Positions 1 to 17,944 of a stretch of 64,000 bases of DNA are shown in pieces. Each line of letters begins with the position of its first letter. Position 1 is the stretch's first letter. The DNA is from an uncultured Planctomycetota bacterium (lineage in GTDB: Bacteria > Planctomycetota > Planctomycetia > Isosphaerales > Isosphaeraceae): NCBI GenBank assembly GCA_963845755.1, contig CAWJTV010000031.1, positions 64,001 to 128,000 of the forward strand, in the 5' to 3' direction. Position numbers and translations under genes: made by a program. The notes under the pieces were generated by a model, which had not been told where the DNA came from, made no database searches, and saw nothing but the letters and a program-made list of their open reading frames with translations.

Positions 1-1411
1 ACCGCTCGGCCTTGACGCCGTACAGCCAGACCACGAAGACCGTGAGCAGCAGGAGGGCCGAGGCGAAGAGGTTCCCGTAGAAGAGGTGACTCCGCAGGCC
101 GCTGTCGATGAGGTGGCCGAATAGCCAGGGGGCCAGCGTTCCACCGATGAGCGTGCCCACGGCGTAGAACAGCGCGATCACCATGCCGCGAAGCTCGATC
201 GGGAAGATTTCGCTGACGGTTAAGTAGGCCGAGCTTGCGGCCGAAGAGGCGAAGAAGAAGACGCAAGCCCAGAGCGCCGTCTGGGTCGTGGGAGTGAGTC
301 AACCTGCCACGAAGAGGTAGCCGGTCAGTGCCAGCAGCACCGCGGAGATCGTGTAGGTTCCGCCGATCATCGGCCTGCGTCCGATCGTGTCGAAGAACCG
401 CCCCAGGAGCAAGGGTCCCAGGAAATTGCTGAGCGTGAACGGGAGCAGGTAGAGGCCGGTGCGATCGGGCAAGACCCCATAGAAGTTGCTGAGCACCAGC
501 GGAAAGGTGAAGTACAGGCCGTTATAAAGGAACGCTTGCGAGACGATCAGCGCCAGGCCCAGTACCGTGCGCGTGGGATAGGTTCGCAGCATGACCGCTG
601 CGAGCTCGCCGAAGCCGACCGGACCGCGGGGACGGATGGTGATCGAACCCTGCGGCGGCGGGAGCTTCTTGGCCCCAGGTGTACTCTCGATGGCTTCCTC
701 GATCTCCGAGACGACCCGCTCGGCCTCTTCGGACTGGCCGTGCGTTAGCAGCCACCGGGGACTCTCCGGGACATAATGGCGAAGGAAGACGATCGTCAGT
801 CCCAGGACCGCTCCGATGCCGAATCCCAGCCGCCAGCCGAGATCCGGCCGGAATATGGACGGATTGAGAAGAAGTACACTCGCGAAGGAACCGGCCGCCG
901 CTCCCACCCAGAAGGTCCCGTTGATCGCTAGGTCAGCTTGACCCCTGAGCCTGCTGGGGATCAGTTCGTCGATGGCCGAGTTGATCGCCGAGTATTCCCC
1001 GCCGATCGCCGCTCCTGTCAAGAAACGGAACAATGCAAAGCTCGCGAAGTTCCACGAGAGGGCGGTCAAGAAGGCCGACACCAGGTACAGAACCAACGTC
1101 ACCGAGAAGAGTTTTTTCCGTCCGAGTCGGTCGGTCAGGTAGCCGAATACCAGCGCCCCAAGCACGGCCCCCGATAGGTAGGCCGAATTCAACAGGCCGA
1201 GCTGTGACCCGCTCAAGTGCAGACTTTGCGGCTCCTGCAGTATCGCACTGAACGAGGCGATCATCGTGACCTCGAGGCCATCGATGATCCAGGTAATCCC
1301 CAACGCGCTGACCACCATGACGTGCCAACGGCTCCACGGCAGGCGATCCAGCCGAGCGGGGACGTTCGATCGAAAGGTCTGCTTCTTCTCGATGCCGACG
1401 GCCGTGCTCAT
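1..1411 (-). CDS. MFS transporter (sugar porter/aromatic acid-like), 3' end beyond window; in-frame TGA at 299-301
   Basis: Motifs RLDRLPWSRWH, GYLTDRLGRK, GGEYSA, PESPRWL and many TM helices. ATG at 1411 has GAGGT upstream. The same frame continues past TGA 299-301 as LTPTTQTALWACVFFFASSAASSAYLTVSEIFP, which is typical MFS C-terminal sequence. Confidence 0.85.
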
Positions 1412-1634
1412 GCTCGACCTCATCTCCGATGACGGGGCGCATCATCTGTGCCCGATTCAACCGGCCCAATGCTCCAGTGCTCGCTCTCGAAAGAATGCAA
1501 AGGCTGTTCCGGCAAGGGATCTCGAGTTGGCGAGCGAACCCGCCGGTGCGTACCCGATCGAGTTCGAGCCATGGACAGGAAACTGGAGCAGTTTGGCACA
1601 CCAGTTGCAATGAATCCGCGTCGGAGGTGAGACC

Positions 1635-2685: not shown

Positions 2686-4350
2686 GTGTCTGAAGGTCTC
2701 AAGCGCGTCTACGGGATCGACCTGGGAACCACCTATTCCGCGATTGCGTATGTGGACGAGCACGGGAAGCCCGTCATCATTCCGAACCAGGAGAGCGAGC
2801 GGATCACACCATCCGTCGTCCTCTTTGATGGCGACAACATCATCGTAGGAAACACCGCCAAGGAGTCGGCGAAGGTCGAGCCACACCGCGTTGTGGCGCG
2901 GATCAAGCAGCACATGGGTGATCCCAACTTCGTATTCGAATACGAGGGCCAGGCGTTCAGCCCCGAGGACATCTCATCGTTTATCTTGCGCAAGGTGGTG
3001 GGCGACGCCGAGATCGCCCTGGGAGACAAGATCAGCGATGTCGTGATCACGTGCCCGGCCTACTTCGGCACGCCCGAACGTGAGGCGACCGCCAATTCCG
3101 GCCGCCTGGCTGGCCTGAATGTCCGCGCCATCTTGAACGAACCGACCGCCGCTGCCATCGCCTATGGACTCGAGCAGGGTGAAGATCAGGTCGTGCTGGT
3201 CTACGACCTGGGTGGCGGCACCTTCGACATCACCATGATCGAGATCAAGGACCGCCTGATCCGGGTGATCTGCACCGGGGGAGACCATCGTCTGGGCGGC
3301 GTTTTGTGGGATGAGGCAATCGTGATGTACCTCGCCGAGCAGTTCCGGACGCAGACCGGTGAATCGTCGGACCCGCTGGACGATCCCGAGGTCCTCAACG
3401 ACCTGTTCCTCCAGGCGGAGCGCGGCAAGAAGACGCTCACCCAGCGCGAGAAGGCGCCATTCCGCGTGACGCACGCCGGCAACCAGGCCCGGGTCGAGCT
3501 CGACCGGGACAAGTTCGAGGAGATCACCAAGCACTTGCTCGACCGGACCATCGAGCTGACGCATGAGATGCTGGCCGATGCCCGGGGCAAGGGCTATACC
3601 CAGTACGACAAGATCATCCTGGTCGGCGGGGCAACCCGCATGCCGCAGGTTCGAGATCGACTGGTCGCCGAACTCAACCTTGAGCCGGAGATCTACGACC
3701 CCGATGAGGCCGTTGCCAAGGGCGCGGCGCTTTATGCGCTCAAGGAGTCGCTCCTGGAACAGGTCCAGGACGTCCTCGCGACACGTGCCGAAGCGGATGG
3801 TCAGAAGGCCGGGCCGGTCGATCTGGCGCAAGTCTCCGAGGAACAAGTCGCCGAGGCATTGGATCACCTCGAGAAAGAGCTTGGCTTTACCTTGACCGGT
3901 CCGGTCCGCGAACTGGTCAATACCCAGATCGTGAACGTCCTGAGTAAGAGCCTGGGCGTGGTGGCCCGCGATACCCAGAGCCAGGACGTAGTCGTCTATC
4001 TCCTGCCTCGCAATTCCGAGGTGCCCCTGGAGCGCATGACCGACTTTGGCACGGATGCCGACAATCAAGGGGCCGTCGACATTCGCGTGATGTCGGGAGA
4101 ACGCGACAGCGCCGACCCGCTCGATTGTCAGGAGGTGGGGATCGCCACGCTCAACCTGCCGGAGCGGCTTCCGGCCCGCAGCCCGATCCGGGTCAAGTTC
4201 GCGATCAATCGGGATGGAAGGCTCGGCGTCTCGGCCACCGACTTGACCGGCGGCGGCTCGATCGACGTCGAGTTTGAGACCGAGGCCGTCATGAACGCCG
4301 AGGAAGTCGCCGAACGCTCCACGGCGCTGCGGTTGCTCAATGTATCGTGA
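2686..4350 (+). CDS. Hsp70-family ATPase (DnaK paralogue, no helical lid)
   Basis: Motifs GIDLGTT, TCPAYF, NEPTAAA, YDLGGGTFD and LVGGATRMP, then an SBD-beta sandwich. The protein ends about 25 aa later (554 aa). Confidence 0.95.
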   Translation: MSEGLKRVYGIDLGTTYSAIAYVDEHGKPVIIPNQESERITPSVVLFDGDNIIVGNTAKESAKVEPHRVVARIKQHMGDPNFVFEYEGQAFSPEDISSFILRKVVGDAEIALGDKISDVVITCPAYFGTPEREATANSGRLAGLNVRAILNEPTAAAIAYGLEQGEDQVVLVYDLGGGTFDITMIEIKDRLIRVICTGGDHRLGGVLWDEAIVMYLAEQFRTQTGESSDPLDDPEVLNDLFLQAERGKKTLTQREKAPFRVTHAGNQARVELDRDKFEEITKHLLDRTIELTHEMLADARGKGYTQYDKIILVGGATRMPQVRDRLVAELNLEPEIYDPDEAVAKGAALYALKESLLEQVQDVLATRAEADGQKAGPVDLAQVSEEQVAEALDHLEKELGFTLTGPVRELVNTQIVNVLSKSLGVVARDTQSQDVVVYLLPRNSEVPLERMTDFGTDADNQGAVDIRVMSGERDSADPLDCQEVGIATLNLPERLPARSPIRVKFAINRDGRLGVSATDLTGGGSIDVEFETEAVMNAEEVAERSTALRLLNVS

Positions 4351-4399
4351 ACGTGGCAGAATGTTAGGGTTCTGCCAACCTCGAGATTGGGGCTGTTCC

Positions 4400-4768
4400 A
4401 TGCAAACCACCGCGACCGAGGTCTTGCCCGAGATCGTGCGACGGCTCGTGGCCGAGTTCGACCCGGAGGAGATCATCCTGTTCGGGTCGCGCGCCTGGGG
4501 AAACCCGCGGCTGGATAGCGATGATGACGTCTGGGTGTTCGTCTCGGACGCGCATGAGAAGCCGACGCGGCGCGCGACACGGGGCTAACGTTGCTTGCGA
4601 GGGATTCCCGTGCCCACGGATTTGATCGTGAGTACCCGAGCGGAGTTTGAGCGATTCAGCCGCGTGCCTGCCTCACTTCAAGCGGAGGTTGTCGAGCGAG
4701 GAAGGGTCTTATATGGACGAGGCGAAGCGCGAGTTGGTTCAGGGCTGGCTTCTCAAGGCGTCGGATGA
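4400..4768 (+). pseudogene. MNT (minimal nucleotidyltransferase) antitoxin, internal TAA at 4586-4588
   Basis: ILFGSRAWG...DSDDDV motif. The frame continues past TAA as RCLRGIPVPTDLIVST...ERGRVLYG. Confidence 0.8.
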
Positions 4769-5131
4769 TCTCGGGGCAGCTCGACTGATTACTCAGAACG
4801 ATCGATCCTTCCCTGGAGTGACCATCTATCATTGCCAACAGGCCGCGGAAAAAGCGCTGAAGGGCTTTCTGGTCTAGTGGGACCAGCATTTGCTGAAGAC
4901 CCACAACCTGGTGTCGCTTCTCCAGCAGGTTGCGGAGATTGAACCCGAGTTCCTCATGTGGGAAGAGGCTGCGGCTCGACTGACGCCGTATGCCACGTAG
5001 TATCGCTACCCCGCGGACACGCTCGCCGGACCGGACCCGAGGAAGTGGATGAGGCGCTGGATGATGCCGCCTTCATCCATAACCAGGCGCTTGGCTTTCT
5101 TCCGACGGAAGTACACCCCGATTCCGACTGA
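4713..5131 (+). pseudogene. HEPN-domain protein, two internal TAG (4875-4877, 4998-5000) and a frameshift near 5037
   Basis: Motifs WLLKASDDL, YHCQQAAEKALKGFL, KTHNL and LTPYA.YRYP. It overlaps the MNT gene as in MNT-HEPN pairs. Confidence 0.8.
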
Positions 5132-5238
5132 AGCCGGAGAGAACGAGTCATGACTATAGTCACCGAAATCTCGAGGATGCCGCTCGATGCCGAGCATCGA
5201 TTGAGGATCCGGGAAATCTGCTGAGGGGATTGGATCTG

Positions 5239-7341
5239 ATGGCCACCTTCGTCGGCATCGACCTGGGAACGACGAACTCGGCGGTGGCCTGCCGCAATGC
5301 CTACGGCCGGCCCGAGGTGATCGCCAACCGCGAAGGGCAGAGCATCACGCCGTCGGTCGTCTATTTCGGGACCGATCCACCCGTCGTCGGCCAGGAGGCC
5401 AAGGAGTGGGCTCGTCTGGGCAACGAGGAGATCGCCAGCTTCTTCAAGCCCCACATGGGCAATCCGCTGTTTCAACTCCAGTTCCATGGGAAGTCGTACT
5501 CCGCTACCGCTCTGTCGACGATGGTCCTGAGCCGGCTCAAGGAAGACGCCGAGTCCCGCCTGGGTGAATCAGTCGATCGGGCCGTGATCACGGTTCCGGC
5601 TTACTTCGCCGATCCACAGCGCAAGGCCACCATCGAGGCGGGCACCGCGGCCGGGCTCCAGGTGATGCGGATCATCAATGAGCCGACAGCCGCCGCGCTG
5701 GCCTATGGGCTCCAGCGGAGCGGTGTCGAGGAGACGATACTCATCTACGACCTGGGCGGCGGCACGTTCGACGTGACCGTCGCGCGGATCACACCCGCCG
5801 AGATCCTGATCCTGTCCACGGCCGGGGATCACGATCTAGGCGGCAAGAACTGGGACGATCGGATCGCGACGTCCCTTTCCGAACGGTTCGCGGCCGAGAC
5901 CGGATTCGATCCGCTCGACGATCCCGTCGCTCTCAACGAGGTCCTGGTCCGGAGCGAGCAAGCCAAGTGGTCCTTGTCCGAGCGGATCTCGACGCGCGTC
6001 ACCCTTCAGCTTGGCACGGAGCGACGGACGTTCGAGCTGAGTCGCGTCGATTTCGAGGCGATGACGCTCTCGCTCATGGAACGGACGCGGCGCTTGACCG
6101 AGGAAGCCCTGGGTGAAGCCGGCCTCAGTTGGGAACGGCTCGATGGTGTGCTCTTGGTCGGCGGCTCGACGCGGATGCCGATGGTCCGCACTTACGTGTC
6201 CCAGATGTCCGGGAAGCCGCCGCGCGCCGGAGTGAATGTCGACGAGGTCGTCGCGCTGGGTGCGGCCATCCAGGCGGCGATCGAGGTGGGTCAGAGCATC
6301 GGAGACGCCGTCCCTCGATTCACACTTGGAACGACTGGCCCAAGAACGGTCGAGGCTAACCTCCAGACGGGCGGGCGGCGTGTGACCGATGTCATGTCGC
6401 ACAGCCTCGGGACGATCGCCGTCAGCCCCGATGGCTCAGCCTATGTCAATGACCTCGTGATTCGGCGCAACGTGCCGATCCCGGCCAGCGACACCAAGTC
6501 GTATCTCCACGAGACCCACGGAGGTGCCAATGCTCGGCTCGAGGTCTACCTGACACAAGGCGAAAGCGCCGAGCCGCTCGACTGCACGGTCCTGGGCAAA
6601 TACGTATTCGAGGAAATCCAGCCGACCAGCTCGGAGGTCACGATCGACGTCAGCCTATCCTACGACTCCAACGGCGTCGTGCAGGTCCAGGCCGTTCAAC
6701 GAGATACGGCACGCCGGCTGCCGATGAACGTGGAGCCGGTGCCCGACGATTTGTCTTGGCTCGGCCGACCGCCCGAACGGACGGTGAAAGCCGCGGAGCC
6801 AGAGCTGATCCGGGTCTTTCTCCTCATCGACGGCTCGTCGAGCATGACCGGCCAGCCGCTGGCCGAGGCGCAGACGGCCGCGCGTGAGTTCTTGTCGAGG
6901 TGCGACTTCACCACCATGGAAGTGGGACTGATCTCCTTCTCGACCCTGGTCGCGCTTCAGGCCGCGGCGACCAGCAACGTGAGGCGGCTTCATGCCGCTG
7001 TCCATCGACTCGAGGCCGAGGGGAGCACGAACCTGACCGATGCCCTGGAGATGGTGCGGGGCCAGCTCGTGAGCAACGATCGCAAGCGCTACATCATCAT
7101 CTTGACCGACGGGTATCCCGACGCGCCGGAAAGCGCGATCGAACAGGCCATCGCCGCGCGTCGCGATGGGATCGAGATCGTGGCGATCGGCACCGGCGAC
7201 GCTGATCGCGATTACCTGCGGCGCCTGGCCAGCAGCGAGCAGGCCTCGATCTTCGCCCGGAGCGGGGAGCTAGTCCAGACGTTCGGACATATCGCCCGGG
7301 TCATCGCCGAGGGAGGCCGCGGCTTGCGGGTCTTGTCATGA
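5239..7341 (+). CDS. Hsp70-family ATPase fused to a C-terminal VWA domain
   Basis: Complete NBD motifs (GIDLGTT, TVPAYF, NEPTAAA, DLGGGTFD, LVGGSTRMP), then SBD-beta, then a VWA with intact MIDAS (IDGSSSM, GSTNL, LTDG). Confidence 0.93.
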   Translation: MATFVGIDLGTTNSAVACRNAYGRPEVIANREGQSITPSVVYFGTDPPVVGQEAKEWARLGNEEIASFFKPHMGNPLFQLQFHGKSYSATALSTMVLSRLKEDAESRLGESVDRAVITVPAYFADPQRKATIEAGTAAGLQVMRIINEPTAAALAYGLQRSGVEETILIYDLGGGTFDVTVARITPAEILILSTAGDHDLGGKNWDDRIATSLSERFAAETGFDPLDDPVALNEVLVRSEQAKWSLSERISTRVTLQLGTERRTFELSRVDFEAMTLSLMERTRRLTEEALGEAGLSWERLDGVLLVGGSTRMPMVRTYVSQMSGKPPRAGVNVDEVVALGAAIQAAIEVGQSIGDAVPRFTLGTTGPRTVEANLQTGGRRVTDVMSHSLGTIAVSPDGSAYVNDLVIRRNVPIPASDTKSYLHETHGGANARLEVYLTQGESAEPLDCTVLGKYVFEEIQPTSSEVTIDVSLSYDSNGVVQVQAVQRDTARRLPMNVEPVPDDLSWLGRPPERTVKAAEPELIRVFLLIDGSSSMTGQPLAEAQTAAREFLSRCDFTTMEVGLISFSTLVALQAAATSNVRRLHAAVHRLEAEGSTNLTDALEMVRGQLVSNDRKRYIIILTDGYPDAPESAIEQAIAARRDGIEIVAIGTGDADRDYLRRLASSEQASIFARSGELVQTFGHIARVIAEGGRGLRVLS

Positions 7342-8264
7342 ATTCGGTCAGCACGTCCGGTCCAGGGGCGACCACATTGTCCTCCCGGGTTCGCTCAGTG
7401 CGGGCGAACCTTCGGCAAGCCTATGATCTGGCGGTGACCGGCGGCCTGGGGGCGCTGTTCGGACTGTACCTCTACGTCGAACTGGTCCAGGCCGAATCCG
7501 TCTATGTGCGCGACGCCTTGGCGGGGCTCTTGATCGGGGGCTCGCTAGGTTTCTTCCTGAATGCTTACGGTCCGCTTCGCGACGGGGCCTGGAAAAAGCT
7601 AGCCCATGCCGTTGCCTGGGGTGCACCGGCCGCGGCCCTGGGTGGTGCGATCGGATTGGTCGCCGGGGAGTTGATCATTGGTCTACTGCGAGGCGGCCTG
7701 CTGGGGCGAGCTCTCTCATGGGCCGTGCTGGGCCTGGGGATCGGGTTGGGTCAGGGCCTGGCCGACCGGTCACGCGACAGGCTGATCTACGGGCTGGTCG
7801 GTGGCGGCCTCGGGGGCGTCCTGGGCGGATTCTTCTTCGAGTTGCTCGGCTCCGCGGTGCGGAATCGACCCGATGCGAGTGGCGCTGTGGGCGTCATCCA
7901 GGCGATCGGGATTGTCATCCTGGGCGCCGGCCTGGGCCTCTGTCTGGCCCTGGTCGAGCAGGTCCTGCGTCGCGCGTGGATTCAGGTCACGAACGGCCGC
8001 CAGGAAGGGCGGATCTATCTCCTGGCCCATCCGCGATGCCGTCTGGGCCTGGATGAACGCGCCGAGATCGGGATCTTCGGTGATGCTTCAGTCGCACGCC
8101 GTCATGCCGAGATCGAAGCAACCTCGCGCGGCTATCTCCTCCACCACCTCGCGGCGCCGGGGGCGACTCGGGTCAACGGAACACCAGTCGCGAGTCCGCA
8201 GGTCTTGAATGACGGCGATCGGATCGAACTGGGACGCATCCTCCTGATCTTCCGGCAGCGTTAG
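7338..8264 (+). CDS. multi-TM Gly-rich membrane protein with C-terminal FHA domain
   Basis: ATGA overlap with the upstream gene; about 6-7 hydrophobic helices; FHA-like C-terminus (RRHAEI, TRVNG, LNDGDRIELG). Confidence 0.85.
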   Translation: MNSVSTSGPGATTLSSRVRSVRANLRQAYDLAVTGGLGALFGLYLYVELVQAESVYVRDALAGLLIGGSLGFFLNAYGPLRDGAWKKLAHAVAWGAPAAALGGAIGLVAGELIIGLLRGGLLGRALSWAVLGLGIGLGQGLADRSRDRLIYGLVGGGLGGVLGGFFFELLGSAVRNRPDASGAVGVIQAIGIVILGAGLGLCLALVEQVLRRAWIQVTNGRQEGRIYLLAHPRCRLGLDERAEIGIFGDASVARRHAEIEATSRGYLLHHLAAPGATRVNGTPVASPQVLNDGDRIELGRILLIFRQR

Positions 8265-8301
8265 CCCGGCTTGATCCCCTATCTCCTGTGAGCATTCGTC
8301 C

Positions 8302-9853
8302 ATGACCCAGCACCAGAGAACAACACAACAGAAACCCTGGTCTCTTGAAGTGGTCCGAGGGCGCGACGTGGGTCGTATCTTCAGCCTGGCAGCGGACGAG
8401 ACGGTCCTGGGCAACGGCCTCAACGGCGAACCGGGCCTCGATCTTCAGGGATCAGGAAGGGTCTTCTCCGCGGCGGATGTCGGCGCGTCAGGCGGCGATC
8501 GTGGCATCGGGACCGGAACTTGTGATTCGCGATCTGGATTCGCCCGGCGGCACGTTCGTGAACCATCAACGGCTGCTCCCGGGCCAGGCGCGGAGGTTAC
8601 AGCCTGGCGACGTCATTCAACTGGCGGGTGTCATGCTGCGCGTGGGAGGGCTGCCAACGCCCGCCGCGACGGCTCCGGCGGCTCCCGGGCTCCAGCCGCG
8701 TGTCGCGCCGCCACTGCCGGCATCCCCGTTGAAACCTCCGGTCCATGTGACCCCACCGGCGCCGTCGGCCGCGACGGTTCCTGGCCGACTCCCCGCGCCG
8801 TTCGTGATGGCTGGCGGGGCCTCCTGTCGGGCCTGGGACGATTTCCTTGTTTTGGCCGCCCAACGCTGGAAGGAGCTTCGCGACGAACTTGCCACCGGGC
8901 GACTGACCAACTACCTTCGTCAGATCCATCGGGAGGATCTGATCCCGCACACGGATAATAACCGGTCGCTCGACGAACGGCTCGACCAGTGGCTTGCCCG
9001 CCTGCCTTCGATCCGCGACAGCGATCCCGAGCTGAGCGTCCACCCCGAGAATCTGAATCTTCGGGCCATGGCGGGTGGGGGAATCGTTCGCCAGGTCCTG
9101 CGGGTGACGAATGTCGGCTACCGGCTGTTGCGATGCATCGCCCGAGTCGAGCCGGCGGGCACGGGCTGGATCCGCCTGCGACCCGATCATGACGGACGCT
9201 CATTCGATACCATCGAACAAACGGACCTACCCATCGACCTGGTGATCCCCGAAGGACTGGATCGTCCGCTCGTGGCCGCGATCGTCCTCGACAGCAATGG
9301 CGGCACGCGCCGGGTTGGAGTGCGGATTGATTTGCCGGGGGGACCACCTTCCTCGCCGGAACGTGTCGCGGAACCTCCGGTCTCACCGCTCCCTAGCCTG
9401 AGCCGATTCTTCATCGAGAAGACGGCTCATTTGCGATTCGGAGTCCGAATCGCCGCGGGTGTCTTGGGGACAGTCTGCTTGCGAACGCTTGTGATGCTTT
9501 CAGGTCTGCTACCACCTGGGGGCCGAGGAGCCCTGATCTCGGAGCCGCGCTTGCCGGCGCTGGCGATCGTCATGGCCGTGGTCGGAGGCCTGATCGGCGT
9601 CGGGATGGCACACCGGTTCCGCGAAGGCAACTGGGGCGATCTGCCGGCTTCGGCATTCACGGGAGGTTTGTTTGGGCTGCTGGCCGCCGCGGTCATCTAC
9701 GCCGCGATCCGGAGCGTCGAGCTTCCGCTCGGAAGCTGGACGTCTTCACTCTGGGTGGTCGAACTACTCTGGGCCCTGATCGGCGCCGGTCTCGCGTGTT
9801 TGAGCCACCTGTTCATCCCTTATCATGCGAAATCGCCGGAGGCCGTCTCATGA
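8302..9853 (+). CDS. FHA + Pro-rich linker + helical domain + Ig/BACON-like domain + ~4 C-terminal TM (frameshift ~8446)
   Basis: Joined ORFs 8302.. and 8345..9853. FHA motifs are LEVVRGRDVG, IRDLDSPGGTFVN and LQPGDVIQL. The Ig-like part is LRVTNVGYRLL...IVLDSNGG. Confidence 0.75.
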
Positions 9854-12059
9854 TTACTCGAATTCGCATCCGGACGGCCGCTGACGCTCTCTGTCCGCCT
9901 ATCATCCCGGCTATTGCCTCCGTACTCCTAATCTTCCTCTCGATCGCAACGTGTGCGATCGCCGATGGGGGAGCGCCGACCGATCCGGAGATCGCTCAGG
10001 CGATCGCCCGAGGGGTGCGATTCCTCCGTTCCAGTCAAAGTGGAAATGGGTCCTGGAATGAACCGTCGCAGGGTAACCATCGACTGGGAATGACGGCGCT
10101 GGCTGGCCTGGCACTGATGGAAAACGGCGTCGCCGCCTCTGATGCGTCGATCGAGCGAGCGCGTGAGGTCGTGGTGGATCTGGCTCGGAATTCGAATCAG
10201 ACCTATGACATCACGCTGGCGATCCTGTTTCTGGCTCGACAACAGAAAGGACATAAGGGCGATTCCGACGCGTTGATCCGCGAACTGGCGGGGCGGCTGT
10301 CGGCCGGGAGTCATGGCGGGATCTGGGATTACCTCGTCCCATTGCAGGGTCGCGAAAACGTCTCCACCGGCGGCCGAGCGCGCGCGGCGCCGAACGACCG
10401 AAGGGCCGCCGAGTGACACGCGCTCAGGAGCCGGCGATCATTCGAACACTCAATTCGCCCTCCTGGGTGTGTGGGCAGCCGGGCGACACGGGTTCGACCC
10501 TGACGAGGCGCTGGAATCGCTCAATGACCATTTTCGTGCCACTCAACTCGACGACGGCCGCTGGGGTTATCGGGTGGGGATGGGAGGTAGTAATGCGATG
10601 ACCTGCGCCGGACTGCTGGCCATGGCAATCACCGCGGCGCGGCCCGGCCTGGCGGAGCACCAGACGGCCCGGGCACGAGGCGCGGCACTCTCCAAGGATC
10701 CGGCGTTCGTCGCCGGCCTGAAGGCCGTGGCCGCAGACGCGAGGCAATCCAATAATCAATCGGACATCTACTATCTCTGGTCGCTCGAGCGGGTCTGTGT
10801 CGCCCTGGGCCTCCGCACGATCGAGGACTTCGATTGGTATGGGCACGGCGCACGCATTCTGCTCGATCGCCAGGAAGACGATGGAGGCTGGCCTCCGCAT
10901 CAATGGGGACGCCTGCCCAATACGTGCCTGGCCCTCCTGTTCCTCCGCAAGGCGAACCTCGCTTTCGAGCTCGACCGGGTGTTGCGGCTGGCCGTGAGAG
11001 AGGGCGAGTCCGCTCCGGGTGGGGATGCGGCGGGGCCAAAAGCTGACGAGAGTAGTTCCATCGATCCCACGTCTTCCGCACCGCCTTCGACCGGGCCGGT
11101 CGCCGAGCGTGGAGCGGATGATGTAAGCGTCATCGTGACGGGGGCCAGCGAACAGGGGTTCCCTCGGATCAGCGTTCAATTCGAGGTCAAGAAACCGGAT
11201 GGAACGCATCTTCGCGACGCCCATCGCGACGATTTCCGCGTCACGGAAGAGGGGCGCGACGTGGAGGTCGTGCAGTTCCAGGCACCCGTGATGTCCGAGA
11301 CGATCCCGACCACGATCGTCCTGGTGGTCGACCGCAGTGGCAGCATGGAAAACGAGGATCGGATCGGCGGCTTGAAGCGCGCGGTAGCCTCTTTCTTGGA
11401 GAAGCTGCCAGACGGCTCGCGCGTCGCCGTGGTCGCGTTCAGCTCCGAGGTCGAACCGCTCTGCCCATTCACGACCGATCGCAGTCGCGTCCGTACGGCC
11501 GTAGACGGCCTCGAGCCCGAAGGCTCGACTCGATTCTACGACGCCGTCGCCGAGTCGCTCCACCTCTTGAACACGGAGTCAGGACGCCGTGCCGTCCTGG
11601 CCCTCACCGACGGTGAGGACACGTCGAGCCAGTCGGCAACTCTTACCTCGGTCATCGCCGACGCGCGCCGGCTCGGCCTGCCGGTCTACACGCTGGGACT
11701 CGGCTCCGAAGATGAAATCGAGAGCGCGGACCTCCGCAAGCTGGCCGCGTCGACCCGTGGCCAGTATTACCCCGCGCAACGCCAACCAGCTCCGCGCGAT
11801 ATACGAGCAGCTCGCCGAACGGATCGGATCGAGTTACATGCTGACCTATCAGTCCGACCGCAAGCTCCCGGACGGGACGCTCCGGCCCGTGCGGATCTCC
11901 TATCGCGGCAGTCAGGCGGTGGGTGAGACGGCCGTCTTCATCCCGGGCATGGTCGTACCGGCCGGGGGTTGGTCGCCGTTGTTCCTTGGGCTACTGTTCG
12001 TCCTGGGCATGCTGTTTGTCTTGCCTCAGGTCTTGACTCGGCGCGGGGCTGCTCGATGA
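9850..12059 (+). CDS. exported prenyltransferase/squalene-oxidase-repeat (alpha/alpha barrel) + VWA protein with C-terminal TM (frameshifts ~10370-10415 and ~11775)
   Basis: ATGA overlap and N-terminal signal-like segment. QW-like repeats SQSGNGSW, TQLDDGRW, RQEDDGGW and motif GDHSNTQFALL. VWA MIDAS VDRSGSM/GSTRFYDA/LTDGED. C-terminal TM followed by RR. Confidence 0.8.
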
Positions 12060-12351: not shown

Positions 12352-14701
12352 TCAATGAACTCGCCCTTCCGTGGTATCGGAAATAGCAGGCTTTGCTGAG
12401 TAGCCTGGGACCGAGGAGCGGCGGCGTCCGGGCGAGAGCACCCGGGGGGGTTCCGCCGGTTTCGGGATGTGGTAGTGGATCTCATGCAGCCGCCGATACA
12501 GCGCGGACGTGCTCTTGAGCTCGTGATCGGTTCCGACGGCTTCGATTCGCCCCGCGTTGAGCAAGACGATGCGGTCGGCGACCTGGATTGACGCCAGGTT
12601 GTGGGAAATCACGAAGGTTGTGCGGCCTCGCGAGAATTCCTCGATGGCCTTGCGAATCAGCACCTCGTCCTGGATGTCTACGGCGCTGGTGGCTTCGTCG
12701 AGGATCAAGATGGCCGGATCTCGGAGCATCGCCCGGGCCAGGGCAATGCGCTGTCGCTGGCCGCCCGAAAGTCCGTAACCGCGCTCCCCGACCACCGTGT
12801 CGTACCCCTGCGGCAAGGCCATGATGAATTGATGCGCATACGCCGCGCTCGGCCGCCTTGACGATCGCGTCGCGGCTGGCGCGCGGGTCGCCGTAGGCGA
12901 TGTTACTGGCGATCGTGTCCTGAAAGAGGATCGTCTCCTGGAGGACGATGCCGATCTGACGGCGCAGGCTCCGGATGGGGACGTCGCGGACGTCGTGTCC
13001 GTCGATGCGGACCGCCCCAGAATCGACGTCCCAGAAACGAGGGATCAAGTTCATCAGCGTGGACTTCCCGCAGCCATTGGGGCCCACAAGCGCAATCGTT
13101 TCGCCGTGGCGAACACTGAGGCTGACCCCGTCGAGAACGGGGGTGGTCCCGTTGTAGCTGAAGGTGACCTGGTCCACCTCGACCGCCTGGCGATGCCGCG
13201 GCAGGGCGGGCGCGTGCTTGAGGTCGATGACGCGCGGGGTCCGGTCCATCAGGGCGCAGATCCGATCGGCCGCGGCCGAGGCCCGCTGGATCTTCGAGTG
13301 CACGTTGGCCAGCTTCCGGATCGGGTCGGAGACCCCCGCGAGCATGGCGTAGAGTGCGAAGAGGTCCTGCATCACCATGGGCTGGGCCGCCAGTTGCAGC
13401 CGGAAGAACCCCAGTTCCAGGTAGATCGTCCGGTTCAGGACGAGGTAGGAGCCGGCCAGCAACGCGATCGCGACCGTAGTCAGTGTCAACATCTCGAGGA
13501 CCGGATCGGACATGGCGTCGATCATGGCAACGCGCACGCTCTTGCGGTACAGGTTCTTGGTCTCGTCGAAGAACCGGCGCCTCTCGACTCGCTCCATGGC
13601 GAACGCTTTGACGATCTTGATCCCCTGGAAGCTCTCTTGAAGGATCTTGTAGATCGTAGACATGCTCTCCAGCGAGCGCCGGACAGCACGCTTCATGATC
13701 TTGCCGACCCGGTACGTCGTCGCCGCCGAGATCGGCACCAGCACCAGGGTCAAGAGGGTCAGCCGCCAGTTGAACGCGAGTGCCCCGCCCAGGCAGGACG
13801 CGATCCGCAGCGGCTCGCGGATCATCTTGCTCATGAGCGTATTGAGGCCCTGCCCGAAGGAATCCATGTCGTTGGTGAACCGGGCCATCAGTTCCGAGGA
13901 GCCCTGGTCGGAGAAGCTCGCCAGGTCCAGATTGACCGTGCTCCGGAAGAAGGTATTGCGGATGCGAAACAGCGTCAATTGCATCACATCCGCCACGAGC
14001 ACTTCCTGGAGGAAGAGGAACACCCCCTTGAACGCAACGCTCAGCATCACCATCCCGATGAGCAGGACCAGGCTCTTGAAGCTGTCCTTGGGGAGATAGC
14101 GATTGATGGACGGCTGGACGAACTGACAGCGCCACAGCCACTTACCTTGGTTCTTCATCTCATCATCGAGGTCGGCCACGCGTCGGTTCAGGTAGGCCGT
14201 CTCATCCTTGGTGAGCAACGAACTACAATCTGCGAGTTCTTTCCATCGAGCATACGCGAGGCGCTGATCTTTTCGTAACGTTTCGAGCCGGGCGGCCTGC
14301 TCCGGGGCGGAGGGATCGGCGGCCTCTCGCCAGGCGTTGTTGCCGAGTTGGCCCTCCTGCTCGCGGAGCACGCTCTCCTTGCGAATATGGTCTGCGTGGA
14401 GGTTGCGAATGCGTTTCTTGAGATCCTCGAAATCGCGCTGTCCCGACTCGGCGACAGCCTGTACGCGCTCGGCCTCCCCTTTTCGTGCCTCCAGGATGTG
14501 GATCTCATCCTCGATCGCCTCGATCTTCTCCGCAATCCAGCGCTGCGGATTCTGGCTGTCGAACAGGATATGCAGCAGGGGATAGACCGCGCCGAGTTCG
14601 GCGAAGAATAGCAGGGCCACCATTGCCGCACAGCAGATGGACAGGCCGAATCGGACCTTGTAGGGCAGAGCGTACCGGACCAGCCGTGCGAAGTTTTTCA
14701 T
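12352..14701 (-). CDS. ABC exporter, fused permease/ATPase (MsbA-like), frameshift ~12845
   Basis: ABC membrane domain and Walker A GPNGCGKS; signature LSGGQRQR and ILDEATSA lie in the downstream fragment. Confidence 0.9.
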
Positions 14702-14998
14702 AGGTCGGAATTGTCGCGGACGGGAGAACCCAAAAAGCATCCATGCATCATCGGGATCCTCAAAGGTCCCGACGTTCGGGCGGCGGTTTCTTTACCAAGA
14801 TCGAGCGAAAGAGACAAGCCGACTTCGATTTCGATCGGCGGGCCATCGCGTGCGCGGCCACTCGGTCTTGGAAAACTCGGGACGGGTGGTTATGATCGTG
14901 CCGACTCATATGGCGATCGCCGCGCGATGAGCGAGTCTCTGAGTCCTCAAAGAACTCAGGGATCAGGAGGAAGGCCGCCAGCCGTCAGGGAGGACGGG

Positions 14999-16120
14999 AT
15001 GAATCTACTTGCCCTGGTCGAGACTCCCGACCACGTCTGCTGCCGATACCGCATCCGTGCCTTCGCCCCTTCCCTCCAGGAAGCGGGTTGGTCCCTCACG
15101 TGTGAAGCCCTCGAGCGAAGTCCCTTGGCACGGACCTTCCAGCTTCGCCGCGCGGCTCGGTACGACGCGGTGGTCTTGCAGCGTAAACTCCTGCCGGCGT
15201 GGCAGCTTCAGATTCTGCGCCGGGCCGCGCGTCATCTCGTTTTCGATTTCGACGACGCCATCCTGTACCGGGATTCGAACGACCCTCGTGGGCCGGAAAG
15301 CGGGAGGCGGCTCCGTCGGTTCACCGACACGGTCCAACGGATGGACACGGTCGTTGCCGGCAATGACTTTCTTGCCGATTGTGCCCTTCGTGCGGGAGCG
15401 AGGGTCGATCGCGTCCACGTGATTCCCACCTGCGTGGATCCGCAGCACTACCCGGTCGCGAGCCAGGTCGCGGCCGGAGGACATCTGGACCTGGTGTGGA
15501 TCGGAACCTCGAGCACCCTTCGAGGATTGGTGCAAGCCCGCGAAATCTGGTCGCCCCTGGCGAAAGCGCTCCCCTGGATGAGGCTTCGGATCATCTGCGA
15601 CCGGTTCCCCAACGATTTCCCGATGCCGGTTGTCGCGATGCGCTGGGAGGAGGCGCGTGAAGCCTCTCAGCTTGCCTCCGGCCAGATCGGCGTGAGTTGG
15701 CTACCTGAGGACCTCTGGAGTCGCGGCAAGTGCGGGCTCAAGGTGCTTCAGTACCAGTCGGCCGGCCTGCCCGTTCTGGCCAATCCCGTCGGCTGCCAGT
15801 GCGAGATGATCCACTCGGGCGAGAATGGCATCCTCGCCACGACGCCCGCAGAGTGGATCGCAGCCGCTACGCTCCTGGCCGACGATCCGATGCTTCGCCG
15901 CCGGATGGGTGCCGCCGGCCGCCTGCGCGTCGAGACGGACTATTCCCTCTCGGCCTGGGCCGAGACCTTTGTCGGCTCGATGACCGGAAGTTCGCGCCGC
16001 GTTTCCGCCTCGGCCCGCCGAGTGGATCGTCCGGACGGGCCCGACGGACGATCGGGGTTCGACGCCCACGCCGCCCGACTCAAATCCATCCCAAGCCTCA
16101 ACCCCGTTGGCGAGCGATGA
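14999..16120 (+). CDS. glycosyltransferase family 4
   Basis: Motifs RYRI, FDFDDAI, VWIG and GKCGLKVLQYQSAGLPVLANPVG; GGAGG RBS before ATG 14999 (alternative start 14927). Confidence 0.88.
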   Translation: MNLLALVETPDHVCCRYRIRAFAPSLQEAGWSLTCEALERSPLARTFQLRRAARYDAVVLQRKLLPAWQLQILRRAARHLVFDFDDAILYRDSNDPRGPESGRRLRRFTDTVQRMDTVVAGNDFLADCALRAGARVDRVHVIPTCVDPQHYPVASQVAAGGHLDLVWIGTSSTLRGLVQAREIWSPLAKALPWMRLRIICDRFPNDFPMPVVAMRWEEAREASQLASGQIGVSWLPEDLWSRGKCGLKVLQYQSAGLPVLANPVGCQCEMIHSGENGILATTPAEWIAAATLLADDPMLRRRMGAAGRLRVETDYSLSAWAETFVGSMTGSSRRVSASARRVDRPDGPDGRSGFDAHAARLKSIPSLNPVGER

Positions 16121-17944
16121 GTATTTGCACTCCGCAGGAACAATCCACCCGGGGGAACGCGGCGTCCACAACGCTCCGCGGCGCAACGGACCCCGATCTC
16201 GTCCCACGGATGTTCAAGCCGCCGGAATGGGAGTGGTTCTCCTTCGGCGACATCGGCTGGTGGGTCCGGACTGGCTCGTCCTGGAGCGAGATCCTCCTCG
16301 GCCCGGACGGGCTCCGGCTGGACGAATGGCGCAAAGACGGGCGGATCACGACGATCAAGTCGGGGCCGCATCGGGTCGTCTACCGCGCGGAACTTCCCGA
16401 AGGCGTCATCTACATCAAGCACTTCCTGGTCCCTAACCGCCGGGCGATCCTGCGCCAGTGGTTCCGGCGCGGAAAGGGTCGGAACGAGGGGAAACGATCG
16501 CGGCAACTGGCCACGATCGGGGTGCCGACGATCTGGCCGATCGCGCTGGGCGAGCTGCGGAAGCGGAAGTTCCTGTTCGAGAACTACCTCGTGACCCCGG
16601 AGATCGCCGAGGCGGTCCCGCTCGACGAGTTCGCGATGGTGCAGCTTCCGAGGTGCCCCGAGCCGCGGCGCGCGCGGGTCCGCCAGAGGCTGGCCTCGGC
16701 CCTGGGCGTGATGACGGCCAGGCTCCACGACGCCGGCTTCCTCCACGAGGACTTCCACCCAGGTAACATCCTCGTCCGATTCCCGATCGCGGACGAGCCG
16801 GAACTGGTGATGATCGACCTGGACGCGCTTCGCAGGCGGAAGCAGGTCGAACTGGAAGGCCGCCAGGCAGAACCTTGCCCTGCTCGATCATTTCTTCTGG
16901 CTACGGAGCAGCCGGACCGATCGGTATCGCTTCCTGGAATCCTACCTGGAGAATCGGTCGGGGGCTCCGCCCGCGATCCGCGGCTTCGCCGCGCGGATCG
17001 AGGAGTTGACGCGCGCCTGGGCCGAGCGCCTCTGGAGGCGTTGGGGCCGGCGGTGCCGGTCGACAAACAAGTATTTCCAGATCATTTCTGAGAAAATGTG
17101 CTGGTGTGTAACATCCCGCGACCTGGATCCCGGCGAGATCGCCGGGCTGATCGCCGATCCCGATGCCCCGTTCCGGGACCCCGGCGCGACTCTGATCAAG
17201 AACTCGCGGACGACGACGGTCGCCGAGACGACCATGATGGTGCGGGGGCGTCCGACACCGGTGATCTACAAGCGATTCAACCGCAAGAAGTGGCTGGACC
17301 CTCTCCTCAACCTGTTTCGTCCGTCGCGGGCCTGGCGTTCGTGGCAGGCCGGTCAGGACCTCGCCAGCCGCGGAATCCCGACGCCTCAGAATCTCGCGTT
17401 CCTCTCCCAACGGCGACCGTTCCGGCGCGACCCGATCTTCTGGTTCCTCCCCCACGAGACGTACCTGATCACCGTCAAGGAAGAGCCGGCTGTCAACCTG
17501 GCGACCTACGTCAGCAAGTTCCTGCCGGGACTGCCGCCCGAACTTCGGCGAACGCGCATTCGCCGACTCACGGCCTCGTTGGCCCGGTTGGTCCGCTCCC
17601 TTCACGAGCGGTCGCTCTCGCATCGGGACCTGAAAGCCGCCAATATTCTTATCCGCACGGATACCCTCGACCACGAGGATCGACTGAGCCTGATCGACCT
17701 CGTCGGGGTCCACCTCCGGCACCCGATCCCGCGGAGGCGACGCACCCAGAACCTGGCACGTCTGGGCCTCAGCCTGGAGAATGTCCCGGGCCGAACCCGG
17801 ACCGATGCCCTCCAGTTTCTTCGCCGGTATCTCCCGTGGGGACTGTCGCCCTTGAACGACTGGAAATCCTTCTGGCGATCGATCGAGCGGGCCAAGAGGA
17901 CCAAGCGGACCCGCAACCTGCGGCGCGGCCGGCCGCTCTCTTAA
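16117..17944 (+). CDS. lipopolysaccharide kinase (Kdo/WaaP/InaA family) with two tandem kinase domains, frameshift ~16850
   Basis: First domain: YIKH, HEDFHPGNIL, MIDL. Second domain: IYKRF, HRDLKAANIL, LIDL. ATGA overlap with the GT4 gene. Confidence 0.85.

Follow-up and report, generated by a model that had tools for sequence, protein, structure and literature searches.

A five-gene Hsp70, vWA and FHA operon of Isosphaeraceae with a chaperone core related to predicted GAP1-N2 DO-GTPase systems

Bacterial Hsp70 proteins other than DnaK are described as largely unstudied in the excerpted text of PMC13580251. Some of them belong to the HSP70 theme of the GAP1-N2 DO-GTPase systems, GTPase-centric conflict systems predicted computationally by Kaur, Burroughs, Iyer and Aravind (eLife 2020; excerpts of PMC7159879), on which we found no experimental work in the literature. 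The excerpted text of that paper names neither an Hsp70-vWA fusion nor FHA partners. Here we analyzed an operon in a 64,000-nucleotide stretch (the window) of an uncultured Isosphaeraceae bacterium of the Planctomycetota (GCA_963845755.1, contig CAWJTV010000031.1, positions 64,001 to 128,000), which encodes an Hsp70 (H1), an Hsp70-vWA fusion (H2V) and, downstream, the membrane proteins G3, G4 and G5. The genome of the window is called G000 below, with L, G and C numbers denoting fetched loci, family genomes and contigs. The operon shares with the HSP70 theme an orthologous Hsp70 pair, a membrane-proximal design and the presence, in trans only, of GrpE-like and J-like/zinc-ribbon/FNIII genes elsewhere in the genome. 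It differs in that no GTPase, GAP1, GrpE or FNIII gene lies inside it, in three extra membrane genes that were observed in Isosphaeraceae loci alone, and in being single-copy and near-core, whereas the systems of the theme are mobile and carry variable effectors. A search for the defining GTPase and GAP1 did not find them, and the window locus is therefore not counted among the GAP1-N2 DO-GTPase systems.

The relationship was established with a tree of Hsp70 ATPase domains, in which H1 fell in one clade of DO-GTPase-system Hsp70s (support 0.97) and H2V in a second (support 0.93); 6 of the 171 rows of this tree have untrimmed domains, and one frameshifted H2V is mislabelled as H1 type. Since both proteins lie within system clades, we regard them, on sequence grounds, as orthologous to the chaperone module of these predicted systems. 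The same tree, a check proposed in the initial annotation of this DNA, placed H1 and H2V apart from DnaK, HscA, HscC and YegD, and one Hsp70 from a viral contig was sister to the pair. Orthology to E. coli YegD was rejected by the tree, although yegL neighbours yegD.

Relatives of the fusion proved to be widespread. Of the best 150 matches in a profile search of 1.84 billion representatives, 88 were full-length Hsp70-vWA-like proteins (~32-48% identity). A DNA pattern derived from the linker region of these proteins matched, in an incomplete scan, at least 120 genome stretches distributed over Bacillota, Bacteroidota, Chloroflexota, Actinomycetota, Acidobacteriota, Lentisphaerae, proteobacteria and archaea of the Methanomassiliicoccales. 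Flanks were obtained for 80 loci, many of them cut by contig ends, of which 14 were of the Isosphaeraceae type. Among the other 66, H2V was found in 61, the FNIII/zinc-ribbon (J-like) gene in 56, a second Hsp70 in 52, GrpE in 49, the DO-GTPase in 46 and GAP1-N2 in 28, and G3-G5 in none. These loci are the HSP70 theme of the GAP1-N2 systems as given in the excerpts of PMC7159879. The order H2V-FNIII-GTPase-GrpE-Hsp70 was observed in the Methanomassiliicoccales loci L151, L152, L184, L196 and L202, where GAP1 was undetected. The query used found no fusion in 400 other Planctomycetota genomes, yet the pattern scan yielded the parent-type loci L150, L158 and L208, and therefore either the sample or the query missed Planctomycetota loci. 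Plasmids gave 360 records with Hsp70 matches, with no fusion among the 25 listed, and no fusion was seen in the best 80 loci of viral contigs, a partial scan whose matches were mostly general Hsp70/DnaK motifs.

The initial annotation had proposed an undescribed system; as far as our searches go this applies to the five-gene form, but not to its Hsp70 core. In a literature search made mostly outside subscription papers, the sole relevant work on either the five-gene form or the fusion was Kaur et al. 2020, and term searches of the excerpted texts of two Hsp70 reviews, PMC8195603, PMC11090510 and one 2026 preprint found no such operon. The operon would act like a specialised NTPase-vWA remodeller, and its Hsp70 core descends from a system already predicted.

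We also searched the family for the remaining components of the parent system. The absence of grpE and dnaJ noted earlier is correct locally; genome-wide, cognate GrpE-like and J-like genes lie on other contigs, so the operon is not self-contained and retains these partners in trans. The J-like/FNIII gene of G000, on C38, scored 461 bits against the profile of this component; by Pfam this copy has a weak DnaJ match and a zinc ribbon and no fn3, which is found on other members, and the HPD motif is missing in 10/10 of the orthologues listed. The GrpE-like gene, on C20, is split over two frames, and its orthologues match PF01025. Across 121 family genomes the J-like gene was present in 101 and the GrpE-like gene in 89. 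In the 47 good genomes, 33 had H1, J-like, GrpE-like and G3 together, 8 had none of them and 6 were mixed. Some genomes in these counts were inferred from tallies, related genomes do not represent independent cases, and of the 8 lacking all, 5 come from one genus. The J-like gene is unlinked to the operon yet co-retained with H1.

The cognate GTPase and GAP1 were each found in 41 of the 121 genomes (39 shared), often within 10-25 kb upstream. Neither was found in 18 of the 37 good genomes bearing H1, nor in G000, its genus and several whole genera. No DO-GTPase lies in the window, the best other matches in G000 reach 25-26% identity, and neither of the two other GAP1-N2 loci of that genome (C11 and C47) has an Hsp70 nearby. 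The relatives L313 and L314 carry the arrangement mnmG-tpx-DUF1080...GTPase-GrpE-[VIT-vWA]-H1, and C20 of G000 has the same flanking genes with the GTPase and the Hsp70 block missing. From this synteny gap and the distribution of the partners we conclude that the ancestral system was broken up, acquired G3-G5 and, in part of the family, lost its GTPase switch. An exported VIT-vWA gene separates H1 from the GrpE-like gene in many relatives (L313, L314, L316, L317, L321) and occurs at G000:C20:160433; it may be a sixth partner.

The five-gene form itself is well conserved within the family. All five genes are present on the + strand as first described, with neighbouring genes overlapping by ATGA at 7338 and at 9850 and with 37 bp (8265-8301) left between genes before 8302, all read directly in the sequence, and the domains claimed for the five proteins were all found. 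The idea of a conserved module that combines cytoplasmic Hsp70/vWA with partners in the membrane found support. In the neighbourhood check, the full order was kept in 17 of 20 family loci fetched by the presence of G3. The three exceptions were one locus ending at a contig edge, L043 without G4 and G5, and G019, in which a caspase-domain gene replaces H2V. Given this order and dN/dS ratios (nonsynonymous to synonymous substitution rates) of 0.05-0.25 across six open reading frames or pieces of the window, we consider that the arrangement is not due to chance. Named homologues were from Isosphaeraceae. H1 was present in 92/121 family genomes and 37/47 good genomes, as a single copy in nearly all, and G3 in 90/121 and 36/47, with no case of G3 without H1 among the 36 good genomes that have G3; no G3 orthologue was found in 24 genomes from other families of the class. 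The H2V-G3 stop/start overlap recurs across many loci, and the gene order is kept in tens of genera although the other partners are dispersed. Among cultured members, Tundrisphaera lichenicola P12 has all five genes, and H2V is present in Aquisphaera and Paludisphaera. In G019 the caspase-domain gene (PF00656; L044:7684-9525) stands behind a divergent H1. An eroded variant was seen in G018 (L320:6992-10467), with a G3 lacking FHA and a single frame that joins the helical/Ig part of G4 to the barrel of G5 without a vWA domain; this joined frame may reflect either a genuine fusion or an error of assembly.

Examination of the two Hsp70s revealed substantial departures from DnaK. Lid loss had been ascribed to H1 only, and this is right for H1, which ends about 20 residues past the beta-sandwich, but H2V lacks the lid too, a vWA domain standing in its position. 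H1 has an insertion of about 55 residues preceding its linker and retains a DnaK-like peptide pocket (F426, T428, Q433, V436, I438, V440); in H2V the pocket has diverged, and the vWA metal-ion-dependent adhesion site (MIDAS) is complete (D531, S533, S535, T597, D624). The ATPase residues D8, K70, E171 and T199 are present in both proteins, the hydrophobic VLLL linker is altered in both, and R167 and D393 are altered in H1; in DnaK the linker and these two residues contact the HPD motif of J proteins (excerpts of PMC8215388). Neither protein showed the canonical DnaK features, namely a helical lid, a DVLLLD linker and a score above the curated cut-off, and neither reached any curated DnaK or HscA cut-off. 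The predicted structure of H2V (predicted local distance difference test score, pLDDT, 92.6; predicted template modelling score, pTM, 0.83) best fits ATP-state Hsp70s, including DnaK. A complex prediction of H2V and Mg with the FHA domain of G3 scored 0.00, which counts neither for nor against docking. E. coli HscC, which acts with the tail-anchored DjlB/DjlC, is likewise a specialised Hsp70 with private cofactors and a proposed action at the membrane; unlike in the pair described here, its lid is shortened, and it works with classic J proteins, does not use GrpE and has no vWA or FHA partners, according to the excerpts of PMC8215388. In our tree it falls in a separate clade.

The membrane proteins carry unusual FHA domains. 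In G3, this domain lacks the canonical Arg, Ser and Asn and has an invariant G-L-D-E where G-R is expected (compared with GarA, it reads G-L and A-R-R-H, and the Asn is absent), and in G4 G-N and S-P-G-G-T occupy the canonical positions. The residues G-R, S-x-x-H and N, which we take to bind phosphothreonine and which are conserved in the phosphothreonine-reading type (ArnA/ArnB, GarA), were thus found in neither G3 nor G4, and no kinase linked to the FHA proteins of the operon was found. Sulfolobus ArnA (FHA) and ArnB (vWA) (excerpts of PMC6509490) similarly have an FHA gene beside a vWA gene and are a precedent for FHA-vWA binding; ArnA, however, reads phosphorylated motifs, whereas the FHA domains here are without the canonical residues, membrane-bound and unaccompanied by a linked kinase. 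Fold searches of G4 covered its FHA and Ig domains, leaving the helical domain unassigned, and a search for longer fused forms gave one FHA-only match. The leads from atlas searches all scored below 0.9; one of them, between the middle region of G4 and DUF5717_N (PF18984), had a feature score of 0.88 and is a lead only, with a hidden Markov model match in 0/5 genomes. G5 is predicted from its sequence to be exported and membrane-anchored, and its vWA domain is TIGR03436-like with an intact MIDAS. The barrel of G5 is optional, being missing in 3 of 11 aligned orthologues; squalene-cyclase activity was rejected for it, the hits being weak and partial and the domain dispensable. Profile comparison of G3-G5 with the parts of GAP1-N2 DO-GTPase systems revealed no similarity.

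Considering these data together, we favor, at about an even chance, a reading in which H1 and H2V make up a private chaperone machine; by docking on the three membrane proteins, it would assemble or remodel a complex of the cell envelope. Domestication of an Hsp70 machine for remodelling a membrane or envelope complex is likely. In such a machine, H1 would take client peptides in its intact pocket and exchange them rapidly owing to the missing lid, H2V would harness the same ATP-driven docking cycle so that a metal-dependent vWA grip moves instead of a lid, and the GrpE-like protein would reset both. The J-like/zinc-ribbon/FNIII protein, having no HPD, would serve as a scaffold and not as a classic J activator, a role that matches the altered J-docking residues of the Hsp70s. 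G3 and G4 would be phosphorylation-independent membrane anchors, and G5 would display a second vWA outside the membrane. Single-copy fixation in the family would speak for a housekeeping envelope or surface role over fast-evolving defence, and a near-core gene set inherited under purifying selection is more in keeping with a fixed cellular role than with a typical defence island. Going further, the locus could tentatively be viewed as a GTPase-free core machine spanning the inner membrane, domesticated from a conflict system, in which a vWA moved by Hsp70, phosphorylation-blind FHA anchors and an exported vWA build a surface structure, with the invariant acidic loop of the FHA domain possibly completing the MIDAS site of H2V. 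Such a machine would be the Hsp70 counterpart of the MoxR-vWA machines, with which the operon shares an ATP-driven chaperone coupled to a MIDAS vWA and exported and membrane partners; no MoxR AAA+ ATPase is present in the operon, where the NTPase is instead an Hsp70 fused directly to vWA. The family constitutes a natural dissection, with complete dispersed systems, GTPase/GAP1-less and barrel-less versions, full losses and cultured members, and it makes testable both the role of an Hsp70 whose lid is replaced by a vWA domain and whether a conflict-type system becomes fixed as ordinary cell machinery.

Several observations weigh against the envelope-machine reading. H1 is missing from 10 of the 47 good genomes and so is not essential, G000 is 88% complete with a frameshifted GrpE-like gene, the family genomes include kin that are not independent, and the joint loss of G3 and H1 can stem from one deletion. 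L043 has neither G4 nor G5. G019 keeps G3-G5 with the caspase-domain gene in the place of H2V, and its J-like and GrpE-like genes were not found; L316, L321 and L322 carry both Hsp70s with no adjoining G3-G5, and in G488 and G504 G3 is far from H1. Such separated halves, together with the lack of profile similarity between G3-G5 and the parts of the parent system and the unrelated genes in the H1-H2V spacer of 12/19 loci, would be expected if the Hsp70 pair served only the dispersed GrpE-like and J-like partners and G3-G5 were a separate, merely co-transcribed membrane vWA/FHA module. We consider this unlikely in view of the recurrent H2V-G3 overlap, the absence of G3 without H1 in the good genomes, and an order held through tens of genera while the other partners dispersed.

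The locus could also still be an anti-invader system as conceived by Kaur et al., its Hsp70 pair setting a threshold or driving a membrane effector and G3-G5 replacing the GTPase/GAP1 arm as sensor and effector. Direct descent from a predicted conflict system, the retention of all components, dispersed, in about a third of the family, the caspase-domain substitution in G019, and the listing of Isosphaera, Singulisphaera and Paludisphaera as multicellular (in the excerpted supplement of PMC7159879) all point this way, as do paralogues of G3 within TerY-like vWA and ubiquitin-like/JAB operons of G000 (labelled by motif), contexts linked to stress and defence that also count against the envelope machine. 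We nevertheless hold an anti-invader role to be rather doubtful: the locus is single-copy, near-core, under purifying selection (dN/dS 0.05-0.26), genome-like in its G+C content and not mobile, has no variable effector and no PADLOC match among 7 proteins, no fusion was seen among the 25 plasmid records listed or the best 80 viral loci, and the parent system is itself only a prediction. A general stress or heat-shock pair backing up DnaK is very improbable. The ATPase residues of both proteins and the peptide pocket of H1 would suit it, but the lids are missing, the linker and J-docking residues are altered, the DnaK and HscA cut-offs are missed and the clade is separate; a canonical DnaK is encoded elsewhere in G000. 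The window contains no match, at 3 mismatches allowed, to the controlling inverted repeat of chaperone expression (CIRCE). The original view that this is not a heat-shock chaperone is therefore upheld.

One of the G3 paralogues (G000:C11:1387000-1399600; L051/L052) has a C-terminal zinc ribbon and shares its operon with a PP2C-like gene and genes for TerY-like vWA proteins; a GYF-type DO-GTPase/GAP1-N2 locus is ~30 kb away. No PP2C or kinase of a TerY-P triad is among the five genes of the operon. The second (G000:C36:264699-269689; L053) accompanies a ubiquitin-like/E1-like fusion, a JAB-like peptidase and a zinc-ribbon transmembrane protein. These labels, too, are by motif.

Table 1. Genes and gene remnants of the operon in the window (TM, transmembrane helix or segment).
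Feature	Position	Strand	Basis or remark
H1, lid-less Hsp70, 554 aa	2686..4350	+	domain match; tree clade
Broken nucleotidyltransferase (MNT antitoxin-like, PF01909)	4400..4768	+	in-frame stop at 4586
Broken HEPN (PF05168)	4713..5130, end approximate	+	two in-frame stops and frame change
H2V, Hsp70-vWA fusion, 700 aa	5239..7341	+	domain match; structure model; tree clade
G3, glycine-rich multi-TM domain (4-6 helices) and C-terminal FHA	7338..8264	+	domain and TM prediction
G4, degenerate FHA, Pro-rich linker, small helical domain, ASH/PapD-like Ig, 4 TM	8302..9853	+	
G5, N-terminal hydrophobic segment, squalene-cyclase-like alpha/alpha barrel, vWA, C-terminal TM	9850..12059	+	

The G+C content of the operon resembles that of the genome, and a promoter/terminator scan of the locus gave a signal no better than chance. 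The initial annotation had overlooked three frameshifts, one in G4 at about 8448 and two in G5 at about 10410 and 11771. The relatives' G4 and G5 run uninterrupted in one frame across these sites, frame changes also occur in 8 of 24 other genes tested in the G000 assembly, and a related contig has 2 extra bases at 11772; these frameshifts are therefore likely assembly errors, and we rejected the view that G4 and G5 are real pseudogenes. Three DNA runs yielded short pieces, with two of the three sites uninformative. The neighbouring MFS, ABC-transporter and kinase-like genes (window 3-1423, 12352-14740 and 15730-17944) also appear frameshifted, which fits an indel-rich assembly.

Also overlooked were the 888 bp between H1 and H2V, which carry the broken MNT-HEPN pair. 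A similar pair occupies the same position in L031, L041, L048 and L050, and L032 has the MNT gene there before the locus stops at a contig edge. The spacer measures at most 141 bp in 7/19 loci and holds inserted genes in the remainder, the other inserts, labelled by motif, being genes of Uma2-like type, an AAA ATPase-like gene and small transmembrane genes. The H1-H2V spacer in L031-L050 is an insertion hot spot, with MNT-HEPN pairs among its inserts.

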